A stretch of 64,000 bases of DNA, from IMG/VR virus record IMGVR_UViG_3300025708_000007, positions 26,968 to 90,967 of that record; one strand, given 5' to 3'. Source of the DNA: a virus. Its lineage: Duplodnaviria > Caudoviricetes. Positions 5,689-35,022 of this stretch are shown here, one piece after another. Position 1 is the first letter of the stretch. Each line of letters opens with the position of its first letter. The position numbers were made by a program, and so were the translations under genes. The notes below the pieces were generated by a model. It made no database searches and was not told the origin of the DNA. It saw only the letters and a program-made list of their open reading frames with translations.

Positions 5689-6333
5689 TTAACAATAAGG
5701 TGATTTTGACATATTATTATAACGACTACTATTGTCTTCAATAGATAGCGTTCTGTTTTCAATAAAACCTTCAGTATATTCTCTAATAAACAGTGTTTGA
5801 ATGTTACGTGGGGCATGTTTAAATGCAAGGAAATCTATTTCATCACCATCGGGACTCCACATGGTCACTTGAATATCATCCCAATTTAAGTGTGTGAAAT
5901 ACGCCTCACCTTCAGCTTCTCTATCAGTATCAGGTGTACCACCAAGTCTTGCAGGTGTATAATAACCACCCTTTCCAATTGAAATTTTGTCTGAATCAAA
6001 AATCAATGTAAATTTTACAGGTGCTTGTGTTTCATCATGTTTATATTCAATTTCAAGACCATAAAATAATGTTAAGTACGATGCGTCACCAAAATCATTT
6101 TCCCAATCACCATCAATTGTTGCATCCGTTACATTAATTTTTATTTTTCTATTTCTTTCAGTTTTTCTATAATCATTGATACTGAGTAATGAATCACAAA
6201 TAAATTGCTTTTGAAAATCTTCACTCGACAACAATCTCAAATCGTTTTCTTCTTGAAGACGTTTTTCACTACCTAAAAAATCAAAATTGGAAATCTCTTC
6301 GTTGATTATTTTTATAAATTCTTTCTTTTTCAC
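5689..6333 (-). CDS. Hypothetical protein with IINEEI N-terminal leader
   Basis: 214-aa ORF. Confidence 0.7.
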   Translation of the reverse strand: MKKKEFIKIINEEISNFDFLGSEKRLQEENDLRLLSSEDFQKQFICDSLLSINDYRKTERNRKIKINVTDATIDGDWENDFGDASYLTLFYGLEIEYKHDETQAPVKFTLIFDSDKISIGKGGYYTPARLGGTPDTDREAEGEAYFTHLNWDDIQVTMWSPDGDEIDFLAFKHAPRNIQTLFIREYTEGFIENRTLSIEDNSSRYNNMSKSPYC

Positions 6334-6611: not shown

Positions 6612-6642
6612 TTTGTATTTATGATTTTAAGTGCTATATTTG
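6612..6642 (+). promoter_or_regulatory. Bacteroidota sigma-A type promoter of tRNA operon A
   Basis: TTTG (6612-15), 19 nt, TATATTTG (6635-42). Confidence 0.8.
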
Positions 6643-6675: not shown

Positions 6676-6750
6676 ATGGAGAATTTTGTACATATTCAAC
6701 CCCAGCCACAACAGCATCCACAAGATGGTGAATGGGGAACATGTGCTTAA
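6676..6750 (+). CDS. Leader peptide A, MENFVHIQPQPQQHPQDGEWGTCA (putative attenuator)
   Basis: 10 of 11 consecutive codons are His/Gln/Pro; precedes the Pro/His/Gln tRNA cluster. Confidence 0.8.
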   Translation: MENFVHIQPQPQQHPQDGEWGTCA

Positions 6751-6785
6751 TTTTTCGAAGATGAAGTTTTGAGTTAAACATTGTG

Positions 6786-6816
6786 AACCCCATTCTGAAA
6801 AGAGTGGGGTTTTTTT
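6786..6816 (+). terminator. Attenuator terminator A
   Basis: AACCCCATTC / GAGTGGGGTT plus T run; 5' arm also complementary to GAATGGGG (6730-37). Confidence 0.85.
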
Positions 6817-6829
6817 GTTCTTTGAAATT

Positions 6830-6904
6830 CTGGGTGTTCCGCAGATGGCTATACGGGCGTGCCTTGGAAGCACGTGTTCGCTGGTTCGAATCCAGCTACC
6901 CAGA
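6830..6904 (+). tRNA. tRNA-Pro(TGG)
   Basis: Cloverleaf; CGTGC CT TGG AA GCACG. Confidence 0.9.
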
Positions 6905-6910
6905 CAACAC

Positions 6911-6984
6911 GGTGAGCGTAGTTCAGTTGGCAGAACACCAGATTGTGGTTCTGGTTGTCGCTGGTTCGAATCCAGTCGTTCACC
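6911..6984 (+). tRNA. tRNA-His(GTG)
   Basis: G-1:C73 pair; CCAGA TT GTG GT TCTGG. Confidence 0.9.
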
Positions 6985-7156
6985 CAAAAATATCGATGAT
7001 TTTATCTATATTTTCAAAATATCGATGAATTTATCGATAAAATGAAAATATCGCTTAATTACACGATAATTGTATTTATCACGTAAACAAGTGATAAATA
7101 AGTTCTTTGAATTAATGAAAAAATGGGATTTGAAAAATTTTCAAGTATTTATTTAC

Positions 7157-7564
7157 ATGAAATATCCTAAGATAATAAAACGTTGTCCTATTTGTGATAA
7201 AGAATTTGAAACAAAATCGGGACACCCCAAAGAAAAAACAGTTTGTTCACATTCTTGTGCAAACACATATTTTCGGTCTGGAACTTCAAATCCTAATTAC
7301 AAAAATGATGATGAATTAACTGGTGTTGCGAAATACATTAGAATTTGTTTTCGATATCATCCTAAAAAATGCGTCTGCTGCAATGAAACAAATATTGTGG
7401 AAGTGCATCATTATGATAATAATAAAGAAAATAATTCACCCGAAAACTTAATACCTTTATGTCCAACACATCATCAATATTGGCACAGTAGATTTAGACA
7501 TTTGATTAAAACAAAGATTGATAAATATATTGTGGAATTTAAAAAAAATTTTATCGGGGTGTAG
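7157..7564 (+). CDS. HNH endonuclease
   Basis: CVCC...VEVHHYD...NSPENLIPLCPTHH; stop codon lies inside the next tRNA. Confidence 0.8.
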   Translation: MKYPKIIKRCPICDKEFETKSGHPKEKTVCSHSCANTYFRSGTSNPNYKNDDELTGVAKYIRICFRYHPKKCVCCNETNIVEVHHYDNNKENNSPENLIPLCPTHHQYWHSRFRHLIKTKIDKYIVEFKKNFIGV

Positions 7565-7627
7565 CGCAGTTGGTAGCGTACCTGCTTTGGGAGCAGGGGG
7601 TCGTCAGTTCGAGCCTGACTACCCCGA
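7555..7627 (+). tRNA. tRNA-Pro(TGG)
   Basis: CCTGC TT TGG GA GCAGG. Confidence 0.9.
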
Positions 7628-7629
7628 CT

Positions 7630-7704
7630 GTGTTAGATGAAGATATTGGTTCTCTTCGCCTGATTGTGACTCAGGCTTCTGCGGGTTCGATTCCCGTCTA
7701 ACAC
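7630..7704 (+). tRNA. tRNA-His(GTG)
   Basis: CCTGA TT GTG AC TCAGG; G-1:C73. Confidence 0.85.
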
Positions 7705-7712
7705 CTAATTAT

Positions 7713-7785
7713 TGTCTCGTGGTGTAACGGCTAACATGGCTGACTCTGACTCAGGAGATTGCAGGTTCGAATCCTGCCGAGACAA
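7713..7785 (+). tRNA. tRNA-Gln(CTG)
   Basis: CTGA CT CTG AC TCAG; T1:A72. Confidence 0.9.
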
Positions 7786-7789
7786 CAGT

Positions 7790-7883
7790 GGTGACAGATA
7801 TAAAAAACTGCACGAGAAACAGACACGAGTGGGTTAAGAGTTGTTTTAATACCCGCAATGGTTGCCAGTACCTAATGTCACCC
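7790..7883 (+). ncRNA. Unassigned 94-nt structured RNA, copy 1
   Basis: Near-identical copy at 12760-12853 with compensatory changes. Confidence 0.75.
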
Positions 7884-7887
7884 AAAT

Positions 7888-7970
7888 TGACCTCTGGCAG
7901 AATGGTTATTGCATCGGTCTTTGAAGCCGACACCCTTTGTGGTTTACAGGTTCGAGTCCTGTGGGGTCAA
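7888..7970 (+). tRNA. tRNA-Gln(TTG) with long variable arm
   Basis: TCGGT CT TTG AA GCCGA; ~14-nt variable region. Confidence 0.8.
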
Positions 7971-8043
7971 CAAAATATATTTTTTTGCATATATTTTAAT
8001 ATGTTTGCATAAAATTATATTTATTTACATATATTTGCATAAT

Positions 8044-8198
8044 TATTGTTACGTGACGAAGCGATTCGTAATTAAGCCTTTGACTGTAAACCTTCACAGG
8101 GGTTCGGTTGCTTTCAGGATATAGTTCACTGGTTATGTGGAAAGTAACACTGTGTTAAGTGATAACTTAATGAAAGTAAAGACAGTCCCGTAACAATA
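8044..8198 (+). ncRNA. Unassigned ~155-nt multi-branched RNA
   Basis: TATTGTTACG / CGTAACAATA closing stem with internal hairpins. Confidence 0.5.
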
Positions 8199-8201
8199 CA
8201 T

Positions 8202-8275
8202 TGACCCGTAGTGTAATTGGTTAACACGTCTCACTTTGACTGAGAAGACTACAGGTTCGAGTCCTGTCGGGTCAA
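8202..8275 (+). tRNA. tRNA-Gln(TTG)
   Basis: CTCA CT TTG AC TGAG. Confidence 0.9.
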
Positions 8276-8745
8276 CTTTTTTTACGACAATGCGTTGGTA
8301 ATGTTGCGTTACAGTTAGGACATAAAATTCTTAGATTTTCAATTCTATGGTCTGAATTATCACCATTAATATGGTCGAGAATTAAACTTATATGTTCACC
8401 GTTCCAATTTTCATTCTGACCACATTTTTCACAAATACGTTTTTTTAATCCTTCTTCATATAATCTATTCTTAATATTACCCAAATTTGTATAGGTTGAG
8501 CCAGACACTAAAATTTCGATTGTTGAAATTTTGCGAGAATTATTTAATTTGGTGTTTGTTCTCATATACCGTTCTACTTTTGATTCGAAATGTGAAATAT
8601 CAATATCATATAATTTAATATATTTCTTTAGTGTAGGTCTCGAATTTCCTTTAATTCCCAATCCCAATTTTTGAAGTATTTCGGTATAATTTTTCGAGTT
8701 TTTTACAATAGGTTCAAAATTTTCTCGCAAATATTTTGTTTTCAT
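8272..8745 (-). CDS. HNH endonuclease (paralog of 45572-46246)
   Basis: CEKCG...LILDHINGDNSDHRIENLRILCPNC. Confidence 0.85.
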   Translation of the reverse strand: MKTKYLRENFEPIVKNSKNYTEILQKLGLGIKGNSRPTLKKYIKLYDIDISHFESKVERYMRTNTKLNNSRKISTIEILVSGSTYTNLGNIKNRLYEEGLKKRICEKCGQNENWNGEHISLILDHINGDNSDHRIENLRILCPNCNATLPTHCRKKS

Positions 8746-12233: not shown

Positions 12234-12329
12234 ATGAAAAGAATGCTCGACATATCAGTAATGGCAGTAGCCTTGAACGCAGTCCTATTATGGGATGCAG
12301 TAGAGGATGCGCTATGCAAAGTCGGGTAA
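12234..12329 (+). CDS. Leader peptide B, MKRMLDISVMAVALNAVLLWDAVEDALCKVG (putative attenuator)
   Basis: 20 of 31 residues are L/V/A/D/E/W, matching the downstream tRNAs. Confidence 0.8.
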   Translation: MKRMLDISVMAVALNAVLLWDAVEDALCKVG

Positions 12330-12408: not shown

Positions 12409-12426
12409 GTTCTTTGACATGCTGGA
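12409..12426 (+). promoter_or_regulatory. boxA-like antitermination element
   Basis: GTTCTTTGACATGCTGGA, identical at 34045-34062. Confidence 0.6.
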
Positions 12427-13123: not shown

Positions 13124-13198
13124 GGTCGGCTCGTCTAATTGGTTAGGACATCACCCTTTCACGGTGAAGATTTACGGGTTCGAGTCCCATACGCAATA
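13124..13198 (+). pseudogene. Chimeric tRNA-Glu(TTC) with unpaired acceptor stem
   Basis: 5' GGTCGGC cannot pair with 3' ACGCAAT; 3' end copies that of the 12858 tRNA. Confidence 0.65.
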
Positions 13199-13828: not shown

Positions 13829-14326
13829 ATGGAAAGCTGTATTTTTTGTGGACATAGCAATATCGTTAGGGCAGGTAAAAATAAAAGGGGTAGTCAAAGA
13901 TATATTTGCAGAAAATGTGGTAAATATTTTAACGAAAATACTGACCCAAACATTGGAGTTATATTAAATGGTAAAAAATATTGTTCTAAGTGTAAAACAT
14001 TTAAGTTAGTATCGGAATTTCAATCAACAAATGGTAGATTACGTTATTGTTGTAAAAAATGTGCATCAAAATCAAGTAAAGCAAGATTCAGAAATCATAA
14101 TATAACTGAATTTGAATTCGTTAATTTAATCGATAGTCAAAAAAATATGTGTCCAATATGTGGGGATAAATTTAAATCATATAAACATGCAATTATTGAC
14201 CATAATCATAAAAATGGTAAAAATAGAGAATTATTATGTTCTAAATGTAATACGTTGTTAGGTATGTGTAATGATAATATTGATATTCTCAATAGTGCAA
14301 TCAATTATTTATTAAAACACAATTAA
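13829..14326 (+). CDS. Endonuclease VII-type HNH endonuclease with N-terminal Zn ribbons
   Basis: CPICG...IIDHNH.NGKNRELLCSKCNTLLG. Confidence 0.85.
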   Translation: MESCIFCGHSNIVRAGKNKRGSQRYICRKCGKYFNENTDPNIGVILNGKKYCSKCKTFKLVSEFQSTNGRLRYCCKKCASKSSKARFRNHNITEFEFVNLIDSQKNMCPICGDKFKSYKHAIIDHNHKNGKNRELLCSKCNTLLGMCNDNIDILNSAINYLLKHN

Positions 14327-15399: not shown

Positions 15400-16068
15400 A
15401 TGATACCACTATATACACAAACGGAATTTGATTTAGCAAAAGATAATGATAAATTACCTTGTAAATGTGTTGAATGTGGTAAAATTTTTTATAAACTGAA
15501 AAGGGTGATAAAAAGAACATTCATTGGCTACGATAGAAACATTGGTGATTATTGTTCAAGAAGATGTGCTCGATTATCAAAAAAATCGAGTGCAGATGTT
15601 GTTTGCAGTAATTGTGGAAAATCTTTCAATAAAGTAAAAAGTCAAATTAAAAGAAGCAAAAATCATTTTTGTTCTAAATCATGTTCTGCAATTTATAATA
15701 ACGTCCATAAAAAACATGGAACACGAAAATCCAAACTTGAAAAATGGTTGGAATATAATCTCACCAAAATATACCCAGACTTAAATTTTCATTTTAATTG
15801 CAAAGACACCATTAATTCAGAACTTGATATTTATATTCCATCATTAAAATTAGCTTTTGAATTAAATGGAATATACCATTACGAACCAATATATGGTGAG
15901 GATAAACTTCAACAAATTCAAAGCAATGATAATCGTAAATTTCAAGCCTGTTTGGAAAAAGGTATCGAACTATGTATTATTGATACTTCACAACAAAAAT
16001 ATTTTAAAGAACAAACATCACAAAAATATTTAAAAATCGTACAAGAAATAATAAACACACATCGGTAG
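15400..16068 (+). CDS. Zn-finger repeat plus PD-(D/E)XK (Vsr/DUF559-like) endonuclease
   Basis: CxxC...YCSxxC repeats; ELDIYIPSLKLAFELNG..HY; stop codon inside tRNA-Trp. Confidence 0.8.
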   Translation: MIPLYTQTEFDLAKDNDKLPCKCVECGKIFYKLKRVIKRTFIGYDRNIGDYCSRRCARLSKKSSADVVCSNCGKSFNKVKSQIKRSKNHFCSKSCSAIYNNVHKKHGTRKSKLEKWLEYNLTKIYPDLNFHFNCKDTINSELDIYIPSLKLAFELNGIYHYEPIYGEDKLQQIQSNDNRKFQACLEKGIELCIIDTSQQKYFKEQTSQKYLKIVQEIINTHR

Positions 16069-18154: not shown

Positions 18155-18527
18155 GGGGCAGTTTGGTTTTGACAGCATGCTTGAATGGTATGTAAGCAAG
18201 TCGTAGTTTGAGCAACACTACGTAAAAACAGGTTCAAAACAATAAATGCAGAGGATATAATGTCCATTCCTACTTCTCTAACGAGAGGTCGCTTATTTGT
18301 AGAGAGTGCTGAACTCGCAATGGTAGCGTAAGGAAGCAGCAAACGCAGCAAAAACCTTCCAAATAAACCCATCTCGATGGAACTTGTTATTTTAACAGAG
18401 AGATAAGGAAGTAAAATAAAACAGTGGATAAAAAATAAATGTTTTGCTGATTTAGAAAAATCAGATAAACTTGTAGAAAACGTATTGGGCACATGACTGC
18501 ACACGGGTTCGAATCCCGTCTGCTCCA
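18155..18527 (+). ncRNA. ssrA: tmRNA
   Basis: GGGGCAG / CTGCTCC-A acceptor with G3:U70, stemless D region, T arm, resume context TAAAT-GCA and a tag ORF ending AMVA. Confidence 0.9.
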
Positions 18528-18552
18528 CTAAAACATTTAAAACATTGAAATT

Positions 18553-25328: not shown

Positions 25329-26423
25329 ATGAAGTTAAATTACAAAATATTAGAAAAGGTCGATTGGAAAGTCTTGCAGACTTACATTGATAACAGTCTT
25401 ATTGTCGCAAATAAGCATCCAGAATATGACATTTGGATATTGAACTATTCACCAAAAGTTCAATCTAAGAAATTCTGGGATGAATATACTTTATCTGCAC
25501 GTGGACTCGTTATTGATGCAGAGGGTAATATTGTTGCACGTCCATATCAGAAGTTCATGAACCTTGAAGAACATGACCCAGCAGACATTGATATGTCTCA
25601 GGAATATGAGGTTTTTGAAAAGGTAGATGGGTCATTAATCATCCTTTTCTATTACGAACCACGTATGCAATGGATTTTTGCTTCAAGAGGCTCATTCATT
25701 TCAGAACAGGCATTGGAAGCACAGAAAATGTTCAACCACACTGTTCAGGAAAAAATGAGTTCAAAATATACTTATTTGTTTGAAGTCTTATATCCAGAAA
25801 ACCGTATTGTGGTTGATTATGGTAGCAGAAGGGAACTTGTGTTACTTGGAAAAATGAACACCACTACGGGTGAAGAATGCCCATACGAATATCTTGTTGA
25901 CAAATATTCAAAGCATTTTACTGTCGTGAAAAGAATTGACGTAAGACTCGATAATTTATCCGAATTAAAAAGGCTTGAAGAAGACAACAAGGAAGGGTTC
26001 GTGGTGAGATTCAAGAACGGTTTCAGGGTTAAAGTCAAATTTAACGAATACGTTAGATTGCATGGTATTCTAACAAATGTTTCAAACATAACTGTTTGGG
26101 AACATTTGGTGAATAACTACAATTTTGACCAGTTACTTGACAGAGTGCCAGACGAATTTTATGGTTGGCTACAAAGAGTCGTAGCGTCATTGCAAGGAAA
26201 ATACGATGAAATTGAAAAAGAATCGTTGAAAGAATTCGTGAGAATTTACCACACCAATGGTATTATTGAACGTAAGGATTTTGCAATGGAAGCTTTGAAA
26301 TCGGACTACCGTTCGATTCTTTTCAAAATGTACGACAAAAAACCATATGAATCGATAATCTGGAATATGGTGCGTCCTGTATATAGTAAGCCATTCAAGG
26401 ATGGTTTCGAATATAGTATATAA
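25329..26423 (+). CDS. T4 Rnl1-type RNA ligase
   Basis: KVDGS motif I, EGFVV motif IV, RVKVK. Confidence 0.88.
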   Translation: MKLNYKILEKVDWKVLQTYIDNSLIVANKHPEYDIWILNYSPKVQSKKFWDEYTLSARGLVIDAEGNIVARPYQKFMNLEEHDPADIDMSQEYEVFEKVDGSLIILFYYEPRMQWIFASRGSFISEQALEAQKMFNHTVQEKMSSKYTYLFEVLYPENRIVVDYGSRRELVLLGKMNTTTGEECPYEYLVDKYSKHFTVVKRIDVRLDNLSELKRLEEDNKEGFVVRFKNGFRVKVKFNEYVRLHGILTNVSNITVWEHLVNNYNFDQLLDRVPDEFYGWLQRVVASLQGKYDEIEKESLKEFVRIYHTNGIIERKDFAMEALKSDYRSILFKMYDKKPYESIIWNMVRPVYSKPFKDGFEYSI

Positions 26424-26454: not shown

Positions 26455-27024
26455 TTATCGTATTCTTTCTTTATTGTCACCCATGTAGGTGTATTTAAAT
26501 GCCGGATTCTTTAATAATGCACTTCCTGCAGCAATTGCAGCAATTCTTTCTTCCAACATTGGAATTATAGGGGGTGGCGTACCAGAAGGTATTGAAATAT
26601 ATTGTGCAATTTCTTCGTAAGGCACAACTTCCCAATCCAACGTATATACAGTATGAAATGTTGCATCTTCCTGTGGAACAATTGGGAAATATCTACCGTT
26701 AGGTCCTTCCACCATTATTTTCACACCCTCAATTGGCTTGTATTCAGTTGTACCGCCAACAAATTGGAAATTAGGGTCTTTACGCAACATTGATTCTTTG
26801 TATGTTTCTGCCCATCTGAACTTATAGGGTTTGTGTTTAAAAATCCTACCAAAATATGGATTTGGGTTTGTTCTTGAACCCAATGTCTTTGGTGCTCGTG
26901 CTGGATATGTATAATATACGTATCCAAAAGAATATTTTTGTGGGTCTCTACCCATAAATTCGAGAAAATCCTCTACGGTTGTAATTTCACGACCTTCACT
27001 AAGTTCGTATATAAAATTTCCCAT
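26455..27024 (-). CDS. Hypothetical protein
   Basis: 189-aa ORF. Confidence 0.65.
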   Translation of the reverse strand: MGNFIYELSEGREITTVEDFLEFMGRDPQKYSFGYVYYTYPARAPKTLGSRTNPNPYFGRIFKHKPYKFRWAETYKESMLRKDPNFQFVGGTTEYKPIEGVKIMVEGPNGRYFPIVPQEDATFHTVYTLDWEVVPYEEIAQYISIPSGTPPPIIPMLEERIAAIAAGSALLKNPAFKYTYMGDNKERIR

Positions 27025-27987: not shown

Positions 27988-28077
27988 ATGATGACTATTT
28001 TTGGAACATATTATTACGGTAAAAAATCTTATAAGAAACAACTTATAGGAATCGGGAATACTATGTCCAAAAATTAA
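27988..28077 (+). CDS. Leader peptide C, MMTIFGTYYYGKKSYKKQLIGIGNTMSKN (putative attenuator)
   Basis: YYYGKKSYKK run precedes a cluster containing only Tyr and Lys tRNAs. Confidence 0.82.
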   Translation: MMTIFGTYYYGKKSYKKQLIGIGNTMSKN

Positions 28078-33679: not shown

Positions 33680-33814
33680 ATGAAACGAATAGCGTACATA
33701 TTAGTATCGAGTCTAACGACAACCAGTCGTATTGGAGAAGGTACATTTTGCTCAGATTTCGGCAGAAATAATATTGCGGATACGGGTTCAGGTTTTATTG
33801 ACTTAAAAAGATAA
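33680..33814 (+). CDS. Leader peptide D, MKRIAYILVSSLTTTSRIGEGTFCSDFGRNNIADTGSGFIDLKR (putative attenuator)
   Basis: 30 of 44 residues are S/T/G/I/R/F/N/C, matching the downstream tRNAs. Confidence 0.8.
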   Translation: MKRIAYILVSSLTTTSRIGEGTFCSDFGRNNIADTGSGFIDLKR

Positions 33815-34044: not shown

Positions 34045-34062
34045 GTTCTTTGACATGCTGGA
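34045..34062 (+). promoter_or_regulatory. boxA-like element
   Basis: GTTCTTTGACATGCTGGA, identical to 12409-26. Confidence 0.6.
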
Positions 34063-34392: not shown

Positions 34393-34986
34393 ATGAAAAC
34401 AAAAGATAGTGTAATTAAACTAAGACTTTCTGGAAAAAGTTATGGCGAAATAAGTAAAATGCTGAACATTTCTAAACCCACAGTATCCTACCATTGTATA
34501 AATGCCGGATTGAATGAACCAATTGATGGTCGTAAAATATTGAATGAGGCTGAGAAAATTGAACTTAATGAATATTATAAATCACATACTATTTTCGAAA
34601 CAGCAGAAAAATTTAAGATATCAAGAACAACTGTTCTTGCAAACACTGAAAATAAGAGACTGGTATTGTGTGAAATTGAAAAAAGAAAAAGAAATTATGA
34701 AAAGGTAAAAAATAGGCGACAACGGCTTAAAGAGATGGGTGTTGAATATTTAGGTGGAAAATGTATGAAATGTGGGTATGATAAATGTATTGCTGCGTTA
34801 GAATTTCACCATAGAAACCCAGAAGAAAAAGAATTTGGAATATCACGTTATCAAAATTTGAGTTGGTCAAGAATTATTGTTGAATTAGATAAATGTGATT
34901 TACTGTGTTCTAATTGTCATAAAGAATTACATTATGAGGAACATTGGGATGTATCACCTCTGCCTGATAAGCAGTCGAAAGTGTAG
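34393..34986 (+). CDS. HTH plus HNH endonuclease
   Basis: GGKCMKCGY...LEFHH...ELDKCDLLCSNCHKELH. Confidence 0.85.
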   Translation: MKTKDSVIKLRLSGKSYGEISKMLNISKPTVSYHCINAGLNEPIDGRKILNEAEKIELNEYYKSHTIFETAEKFKISRTTVLANTENKRLVLCEIEKRKRNYEKVKNRRQRLKEMGVEYLGGKCMKCGYDKCIAALEFHHRNPEEKEFGISRYQNLSWSRIIVELDKCDLLCSNCHKELHYEEHWDVSPLPDKQSKV

Positions 34987-35022
34987 TTTGGTTGCACGTG
35001 GGTTCAAATCCCACCTTCCCAA
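34945..35022 (+). tRNA. D-armless tRNA-Ile(GAT)-like RNA overlapping the HNH 3' end
   Basis: TGGGATG / CTTCCCA; CTGC CT GAT AA GCAG; 6-bp hairpin in the variable position. Confidence 0.5.

Follow-up and report, generated by a model that had tools for sequence, protein, structure and literature searches.

Leader A and the Pro/His/Gln tRNA cluster

The window analyzed here, meaning the whole stretch of 64,000 nucleotides (nt) taken from positions 26,968 to 90,967 of the IMG/VR virus record IMGVR_UViG_3300025708_000007 (Caudoviricetes), carries a short open reading frame (ORF), leader A, which is followed by an intrinsic terminator and then by a cluster of seven tRNA genes for proline, histidine, and glutamine with an HNH endonuclease ORF among them (Table 1). 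The initial annotation of this DNA had read the leader and its terminator together as attenuator A, in which a ribosome translating a Gln/Pro/His-rich (Q/P/H) peptide would decide between termination and read-through into the tRNA genes. When the sequence was re-read, every statement made about the sequence of attenuator A proved correct, to the coordinate. Ten of the eleven codons in the regulatory run (CAT ATT CAA CCC CAG CCA CAA CAG CAT CCA CAA) specify His, Gln, or Pro; the segment GAATGGGG near the end of the ORF, hereafter region 2, is the exact complement of CCCCATTC, hereafter region 3, in the 5′ arm of the terminator; and the tRNA genes downstream have the order and the anticodons that had been given for them. 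The run of T residues that closes the terminator ends 14 nt before the first tRNA-Pro gene, and the stop codon of the leader lies about 66 nt before that end. The reading of this unit as an attenuator is likewise supported, by conservation, by codon-level selection, by compensatory helix changes, and by folds constrained by the ribosome.

Q, P, and H together make up 8.6% of the residues encoded by the long ORFs of the window and 10 of the 23 residues of leader A (binomial P = 8.5e-6). Shuffling the leader A ORF yields an exact 8-nt complement to the terminator arm with P = 0.0022 (0.22% of shuffled ORFs), and just one of the nine other terminator-like hairpins of the window has an upstream complement as long as 6 nt. 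Conservation and these statistics rule out a chance ORF.

Upstream of leader A is a promoter of Bacteroidota type. The pattern found before the leaders, TTTG-N19-TAnnTTTG, is what we take to be the consensus for the Bacteroidota housekeeping sigma factor, and the host is therefore probably a Bacteroidota species. Of the six occurrences of a strict TTTG-N18-21-TAnnTTTG pattern on the + strand of the window, four precede leader A and the three further leader ORFs (B, C, and D) described below; a pattern search found no canonical promoter inside the Pro/His/Gln tRNA cluster. The promoter pattern of leader A is retained in 22 of 29 homologous units, and the seven units lacking the full pattern all have the TAnnTTTG box, accompanied in six of the seven by a first box of the CTTG/ATTG type. 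A Shine-Dalgarno site is absent from the leader A ORF, which is usual for this phage: a Shine-Dalgarno-like motif was found in 1 of 32 long ORFs of the window.

Table 1. Positions of the features of attenuator A and of the other leader units, numbered from the first nucleotide of the window
Feature	Position	Strand	Basis	Description
Promoter of leader A	6612-6642	+	sequence reading	Bacteroidota type: TTTG, 19 nt, TAtaTTTG
Leader A ORF	6676-6750	+	sequence reading	24 codons, MENFVHIQPQPQQHPQDGEWGTCA; stop TAA 6748-6750
Regulatory run	6691-6723	+	sequence reading	10 H/Q/P codons in 11 (CAT, CAA, CAG, CCC, CCA)
Candidate region 1	6700-6704	+	predicted folds, weak	CCCCA; could pair with UGGGG (6733-6737) in untranslated RNA
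Region 2	6730-6737	+		antiterminator 5′ strand GAATGGGG; codons Glu-Trp-Gly; ends 10 nt 5′ of stop
Spacer hairpin	6739-6784	+	constrained folds	holds stop codon; stacked on 2:3 helix
Intrinsic terminator	6785-6816	+	fold	12 pairs, 4-nt loop, T-run
Terminator 5′ arm	6785-6796	+		includes region 3, CCCCATTC, 6788-6795
Terminator loop	6797-6800	+
Terminator 3′ arm	6801-6812	+		includes region 4, GAGTGGGG, 6802-6809
T-run	6810-6816	+		7 T
Conserved GTTCTTTGA motif	6817-6825	+	motif count	between terminator A and first tRNA
tRNA genes	6830-8276	+		Pro(TGG), His(GTG), Pro(TGG), His(GTG), Gln(CTG), Gln(TTG), Gln(TTG)
HNH endonuclease ORF	7070-7564	+		between first His and second Pro tRNA
Leader B ORF	12234-12329 (unit to 12398)			MKRMLDISVMAVALNAVLLWDAVEDALCKVG; before Asp, Glu, Val, Leu, Ala, Trp tRNAs
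Leader C ORF	27988-28077 (unit to 28137)			...TYYYGKKSYKK...; before Tyr, Lys tRNAs
Leader D ORF	33680-33814 (unit to 33881)			before Thr, Cys, Asn, Phe, Ser, Arg, Gly, Ile tRNAs

Conservation, selection, and alternative pairing

Homologous loci were collected with an anchor other than the leader itself, an unrelated 214-amino acid protein encoded beside leader A (5689-6333, − strand). The anchor-protein search returned 19 loci from IMG/VR and 61 from Joint Genome Institute (JGI) metagenomes, and all loci long enough to include the beginning of the Pro/His/Gln tRNA cluster carry a Q/P/H leader ORF with a terminator behind it. These homologues of leader A comprise 42 distinct sequences encoding 41 distinct peptides; additional leader copies came from a pattern scan for the Q/P/H run, and the leader peptides of related phages share MKNLVNIQPQPQQHPQ..EWG.YA. 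With blastn, no leader homologue was detected in the GenBank phage collection, where matches were limited to tRNA and HNH pieces. The leader pattern, searched for in 185,579 species genomes, turned up on two contigs only, both of them binned into metagenome-assembled genomes (MAGs) and probably phage, and the element therefore looks phage-specific rather than borrowed from a cellular tRNA operon. One leader-bearing sequence, L078 (JBAZIW010000001.1, 362,763 bases), is labeled "MAG: Candidatus Paceibacterota bacterium"; it appears to be the genome of a huge phage that was binned as a bacterium of the Candidate Phyla Radiation.

Q, P, and H make up the run throughout the 42 distinct leaders, in 19 arrangements that include QPQPQQHPQ, QPQHQPPQ, QHPQPQHPQ, and QQPPQQHPQ. 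Variation by codon position was analyzed in the 21 anchor-derived leaders of the 24-codon format. Across codons 9-15, the numbers of variable first, second, and third positions are 0, 0, and 5, and the run as a whole has 423 synonymous and 142 nonsynonymous differences. The two codons after the run show 0 synonymous versus 305 nonsynonymous differences, the amino acids there being freely replaced, and the corresponding counts at the N-terminus are 167 and 508. Judged from this substitution pattern, what is conserved in the run is the codon family, and so the decoding tRNA, rather than any one peptide or RNA word. At locus L009, Pro tRNAs with the anticodons CGG, GGG, and UGG are found alongside the leader codons CCG, CCC, and CCA. 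Strict codon-anticodon tracking is ruled out by L010, which has Pro(CGG) but no CCG codon in its leader.

A different kind of constraint is seen over region 2. The letters of GAATGGGG are invariant or nearly so in the set designated A1, and codons 19-21 are much less variable than their neighbors. This near-invariance indicates a constraint on the RNA, and four variants support it: the segment is read in another frame in L114, L106, and L138, and the ORF of L027 terminates just before it, with the nucleotides retained in each case.

Among the alignment cells, 96.9% allow pairing of regions 2 and 3 (the 2:3 helix) and 98.9% allow that of the terminator. The 28-sequence alignment contains one compensatory pair for the terminator and one for the 2:3 helix, and given its low variation the divergent loci were inspected singly. 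At L009/L097 there is a three-way coupled change, GAACGGGG / CCCCGUUC / GAGCGGGG, by which a Trp of the peptide becomes Arg. Coupled changes were also found at L126 (GAGUGGGG / CCCCACUU / AAGUGGGG), at L127 (GACCGGGG / UCCCGGUU / AACCGGGA), where the peptide tail is unrelated, and at L138 (GAAUGGGGAU / AUCCCUGUU). The 1:2 helix, formed by CCCCA with UGGGG, is pairable in 92.6% of alignment cells, and no covariation was detected for it in the 28-sequence alignment.

To represent the nascent RNA, transcripts were ended just before the 3′ arm of the terminator and the nucleotides covered by the ribosome were forced to be single-stranded, assuming a footprint that extends 12 nt beyond the first nucleotide of the aminoacyl (A) site and keeping everything 5′ of that limit unpaired. 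When any of the first five run codons occupies the A site, the predicted antiterminator holds 7-14 nt of the terminator 5′ arm in all 28 homologues; it has an energy of −15 to −27 kcal/mol and includes the spacer hairpin bearing the stop codon. Once the ribosome is moved to the stop codon, 26 of the homologues keep 0-5 nt of the arm paired, L051 keeps 8 nt, and L057 keeps 9 nt, and the residual fold amounts to 0 to −6.6 kcal/mol. The constrained folds thus bear out the proposed geometry, in which a stall early in the run frees the antiterminator strand and a ribosome at the stop codon covers it. The initial annotation had allowed a stall anywhere in the run to leave region 2 free, and this holds for the early codons of the run and fails for the last one or two, from which part of GAATGGGG would be covered.

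The antiterminator predicted for leader A is larger than the 8-bp helix noted at first, consisting of the 2:3 helix stacked on the stop-containing spacer hairpin, and in the truncated transcript its free energy is approximately −22 kcal/mol versus −19.8 kcal/mol for the terminator fold when a ribosome occupies the stop codon. Because alifold returned no consensus helix for the spacer hairpin, this element is a single-sequence prediction. In untranslated leader A the 1:2 helix is predicted to form and the terminator still forms; the 1:2 helix also appears in the free-RNA folds of most homologues, and it could act in a trp-like manner, favoring termination in untranslated RNA.

The same arrangement of promoter, short ORF, terminator, and first tRNA also opens three further tRNA clusters of the window, those of leaders B, C, and D. 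The four leaders are each enriched in the amino acids of their own cluster (P = 8.5e-6, 1.5e-5, 1.6e-2, and 2.6e-4), and the real assignment of leaders to clusters has the top score among the 24 permutations. Within each ORF there is also a stretch of 7-9 nt exactly complementary to the terminator arm of the same unit (P = 0.0022, 0.00095, 0.00015, and 0.013). When the 3′ tails of the ORFs were paired in a matrix against the terminator arms, the own arm was clearly best for A, B, C, L097, and L127, only marginally best for D, by a negligible margin, and not best for L107 and L136. Constrained folds of leaders B, C, and D show pairing that depends on ribosome position as in A, and in untranslated, truncated RNA these three leaders, together with some homologues of A, form the antiterminator by default. 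Homologues of leader B, L021 and L022 for example, have compensatory changes like those of leader A. The N-terminus MKNL(V/L)(N/D)I is common to leaders A and B across the clade (6676-6696 and 12234-12254 in the window; loci L004-L022), which suggests either that the units were duplicated or that both need an A/U-rich, unstructured start.

Proposed attenuation and its alternatives

What the sequences show is the anatomy of the unit, its recurrence and conservation, a run under coding-type selection, a region 2 under RNA-type selection, and helices that change in a coupled way. With a probability that we put at about 0.68, these features reflect a trp/his-style, ribosome-mediated (leader-peptide) attenuator acting on the Pro/His/Gln tRNA genes, for which we infer translation of the leader, its coupling to transcription, the kinetics, the physiological trigger, and the direction of the response. 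The coding-type substitutions in the run are indirect evidence that the leader is translated. Host RNA polymerase would start at the TTTG/TAnnTTTG promoter, and a ribosome would translate the 24-codon leader while transcription proceeds. When charged tRNA-Gln, tRNA-Pro, and tRNA-His from host and phage are ample, the ribosome would reach the last codons or the stop, where it would cover GAAUGGGG and melt the spacer hairpin, leaving CCCCAUUC to pair with GAGUGGGG so that transcription would end at 6816, ahead of tRNA-Pro. Slow decoding of CAA, CAG, CCN, or CAU would instead stall the ribosome early in the run; GAAUGGGG would then pair with CCCCAUUC as that strand emerges, no terminator would form, and polymerase would read through into the seven tRNA genes. 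The outcome would be negative feedback on decoding capacity for exactly Gln, Pro, and His.

Enterobacterial hisL, trpL, thrL, and ilvL provide the closest parallel, with a promoter, an ORF of sensed codons, mutually exclusive antiterminator and terminator helices that share a strand, and regulated genes downstream. Leader A likewise has a cluster of sensed codons, an intrinsic terminator before the genes, an exclusive antiterminator, and, by computation, a compatible ribosome geometry. The hisL leader has seven His codons, and sensing of several amino acids at once has precedents in thrL (Thr and Ile) and ilvL (Ile, Val, and Leu). The distance of about 66 nt from stop codon to T-run end is close to that in trp, approximately 70 nt. 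The differences are also clear. Enterobacterial attenuators control biosynthetic enzymes, whereas the genes behind leader A encode tRNAs and an HNH endonuclease rather than proteins for amino acid synthesis or charging, and such a leader would report decoding capacity rather than amino acid synthesis. Unlike the enterobacterial examples, leader A is phage-borne, probably in a Bacteroidota host, and lacks a Shine-Dalgarno site, and its region 2 is placed within the ORF, ending 10 nt short of the stop codon, and not beyond it. Leader A shows no sequence resemblance to the Rfam His, Trp, Thr, Leu, and Phe leader families, and none of the Rfam models His_leader, Trp_leader, Thr_leader, Leu_leader, Phe_leader, and T-box matched leader A at the gathering score; in a permissive search, the best sub-threshold scores were 27.8 bits for PyrR (cut-off 54) and 24.8 bits for L10_leader (cut-off 44), both at chance level.

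Among systems tied to the translation machinery, the pheM leader of the Escherichia coli pheST operon belongs to an attenuator controlling phenylalanyl-tRNA synthetase and resembles leader A in acting on a translation component for the amino acid sensed, although the gene controlled by pheM encodes a protein, the synthetase, and a single amino acid is sensed, whereas the products behind leader A are the tRNAs themselves. T-boxes also convert the state of a specific tRNA into read-through by a choice between antiterminator and terminator, but they bind uncharged tRNA directly and have no ORF, whereas the proposed sensor in leader A is a translated ORF with no match to the T-box model. To our knowledge, the documented targets of leader-peptide attenuation are genes of amino acid synthesis or charging, and in the full-text literature outside subscription journals we found neither attenuator control of phage tRNA arrays nor leader-peptide attenuation of tRNA genes.

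Several observations weigh against the attenuator. The clusters of L013, L038, and L051 have no tRNA-His in the sequence covered, and their leaders retain His codons. Stalls at the very end of the run, on its last one or two codons, would partly mask region 2, and the effective sensing codons are therefore the first six or so. For full-length RNA, all ribosome states tested gave the terminator as the fold of lowest energy, so the modeled switch must be kinetic; in trp, too, the 3:4 helix exceeds the 2:3 helix in stability. Because region 2 is inside the ORF, it would be free again after the ribosome departs. Formal covariation is thin: the observed score was reached by 17 of 500 shuffles of the 28-sequence alignment, and the pairing segments, which are highly conserved, vary so little that only about four independent compensatory events were found. 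In addition, the GTTCTTTGA motif after terminator A could be a bypass promoter or second start, or a processing site.

A switch that is blind to codon identity is an alternative that we regard as unlikely. Here the leader would report ribosome availability, for instance during host shut-off, with translation to the stop codon causing termination, absence of translation causing read-through, and no sensing of Q, P, or H. The default antiterminator in untranslated, truncated RNAs of B, C, D, and some homologues of A is what such a switch would produce, yet untranslated leader A, with its predicted 1:2 helix and terminator, gives the opposite outcome. Nor would it account for the match of each of the four leaders to its own tRNA set, or for the retention of Q, P, and H through 19 arrangements with change at third positions only.

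We think it quite improbable that the terminator is an ordinary leaky one that tunes tRNA output with no switching, behind a conserved micro-ORF whose peptide has a function of its own. The peptide outline MKNL...QPQPQQHPQ..EWG.YA is indeed conserved, and the terminator is favored in all full-length folds. Amino acids are, however, freely replaced outside the run and the EWG segment; the frame-shifted L114, L106, L138, and L027 keep the RNA segment and not the peptide; L009 sacrifices its Trp while the base pair is preserved; and an exact complement to the terminator arm would not be expected by chance. Very unlikely, finally, is a ribosome-free sensor in which the C/A-rich run serves as a Rho-loading, protein-binding, or T-box-like tRNA-bound site: the run, CAACCCCAGCCACAACAGCAUCCACAA, shares with Rho-loading sites an abundance of C and a scarcity of G, and PyrR and L10 leaders give weak Rfam matches below threshold, but the variation of the run is strictly period three (0/0/5 by codon position), which rules out a C-rich Rho-loading site, leaders B, C, and D have the same architecture and are not C-rich, and no Rfam family, T-box included, matched at threshold.

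A broader and more tentative proposal is that the four leaders are sensors that jointly cover all 20 amino acids, in the sets P/H/Q, D/E/V/L/A/W/(M), Y/K, and T/C/N/F/S/R/G/I, and that together they form a phage-encoded homeostat of decoding capacity. Each tRNA block would then be on only when ribosomes slow on its codons, the trigger being, for example, host anticodon nucleases or a phage-induced shut-off that depletes particular host tRNAs. A T4 Rnl1-type RNA ligase (Pfam RNA_lig_T4_1, E = 1.4e-21) is encoded at 25329-26423 (+), approximately 1.5 kb upstream of the Tyr/Lys leader C. T4 Rnl1 repairs tRNA cut by anticodon nuclease, and the position of the ligase gene would fit a context of tRNA damage and repair.

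Leader-peptide logic apparently controls tRNA genes in a widespread clade of environmental phages of about 350 kb. If true, this would be the first known cis-acting feedback on tRNA supply and a compact, modular, codon-specific sensor of translation speed, and it would help to explain how huge phages deploy at least 50 tRNAs without a constant cost. Why phages carry tRNAs is a long-standing question, and the purposes considered, namely codon usage, host shut-off, and escape from tRNA-cleaving defenses, become testable through the conditions that open the attenuators.

Genome context and minor features

The window has a G+C content of 33%, and the 90,967-base IMG/VR record from which it comes has an estimated completeness of 28% (CheckV); there are related contigs of 327-365 kb. 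One identical stretch originates in activated sludge, and relatives were found in metagenome contigs from JGI and the European Nucleotide Archive. Encoded in the window are 50 tRNA genes and one transfer-messenger RNA (tmRNA), every one of them on the + strand, as well as a ribonucleotide reductase, the T4 Rnl1-like RNA ligase, and further phage-type genes. The tRNA genes are interspersed with HNH endonuclease ORFs, and in this the window resembles the arrays of T4, T5, and huge phages, where clustered tRNA genes are interspersed with homing endonuclease genes.

The ORF at 7070-7564, inside the attenuator A operon, matches Pfam HNH families (HNH_2, E = 2.8e-5) and overlaps the start of a tRNA-Pro gene at 7555. 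Four further ORFs lie between tRNA genes, at 8272-8745 (−), 13829-14326, 15400-16068, and 34393-34986, and were judged by eye to be HNH or zinc-finger-like from their Cys/His-rich translations. The phage tmRNA occupies 18155-18528 and has the tag AEDIMSIPTSLTRGRLFVESAELAMVA, and a tRNA with an amber-reading CUA anticodon is found at 46324-46399. Two extra tRNA-like Rfam matches, at 13133-13190 (34.0 bits) and 34945-35022 (31.4 bits), were not called by ARAGORN and may be tRNA fragments or degenerate copies.

Two short words recur. One is the GTTCTTTGA motif, which in the form GTTCTTTRA occurs 10 times, against 2.5 expected. It is found at 6817-6825, 7102-7110, 12409-12417, 34045-34053, and 45703-45711; its sites include those directly 3′ of terminators A and B, one ahead of an HNH ORF, and others between tRNA genes, and it is retained in many homologous units. 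The word AGTTAAACA is present in the 5′ untranslated region and again between stop codon and terminator in many leader A homologues (for example, L004, L015, L054, and L061), and lies at 6774-6781 in the window.
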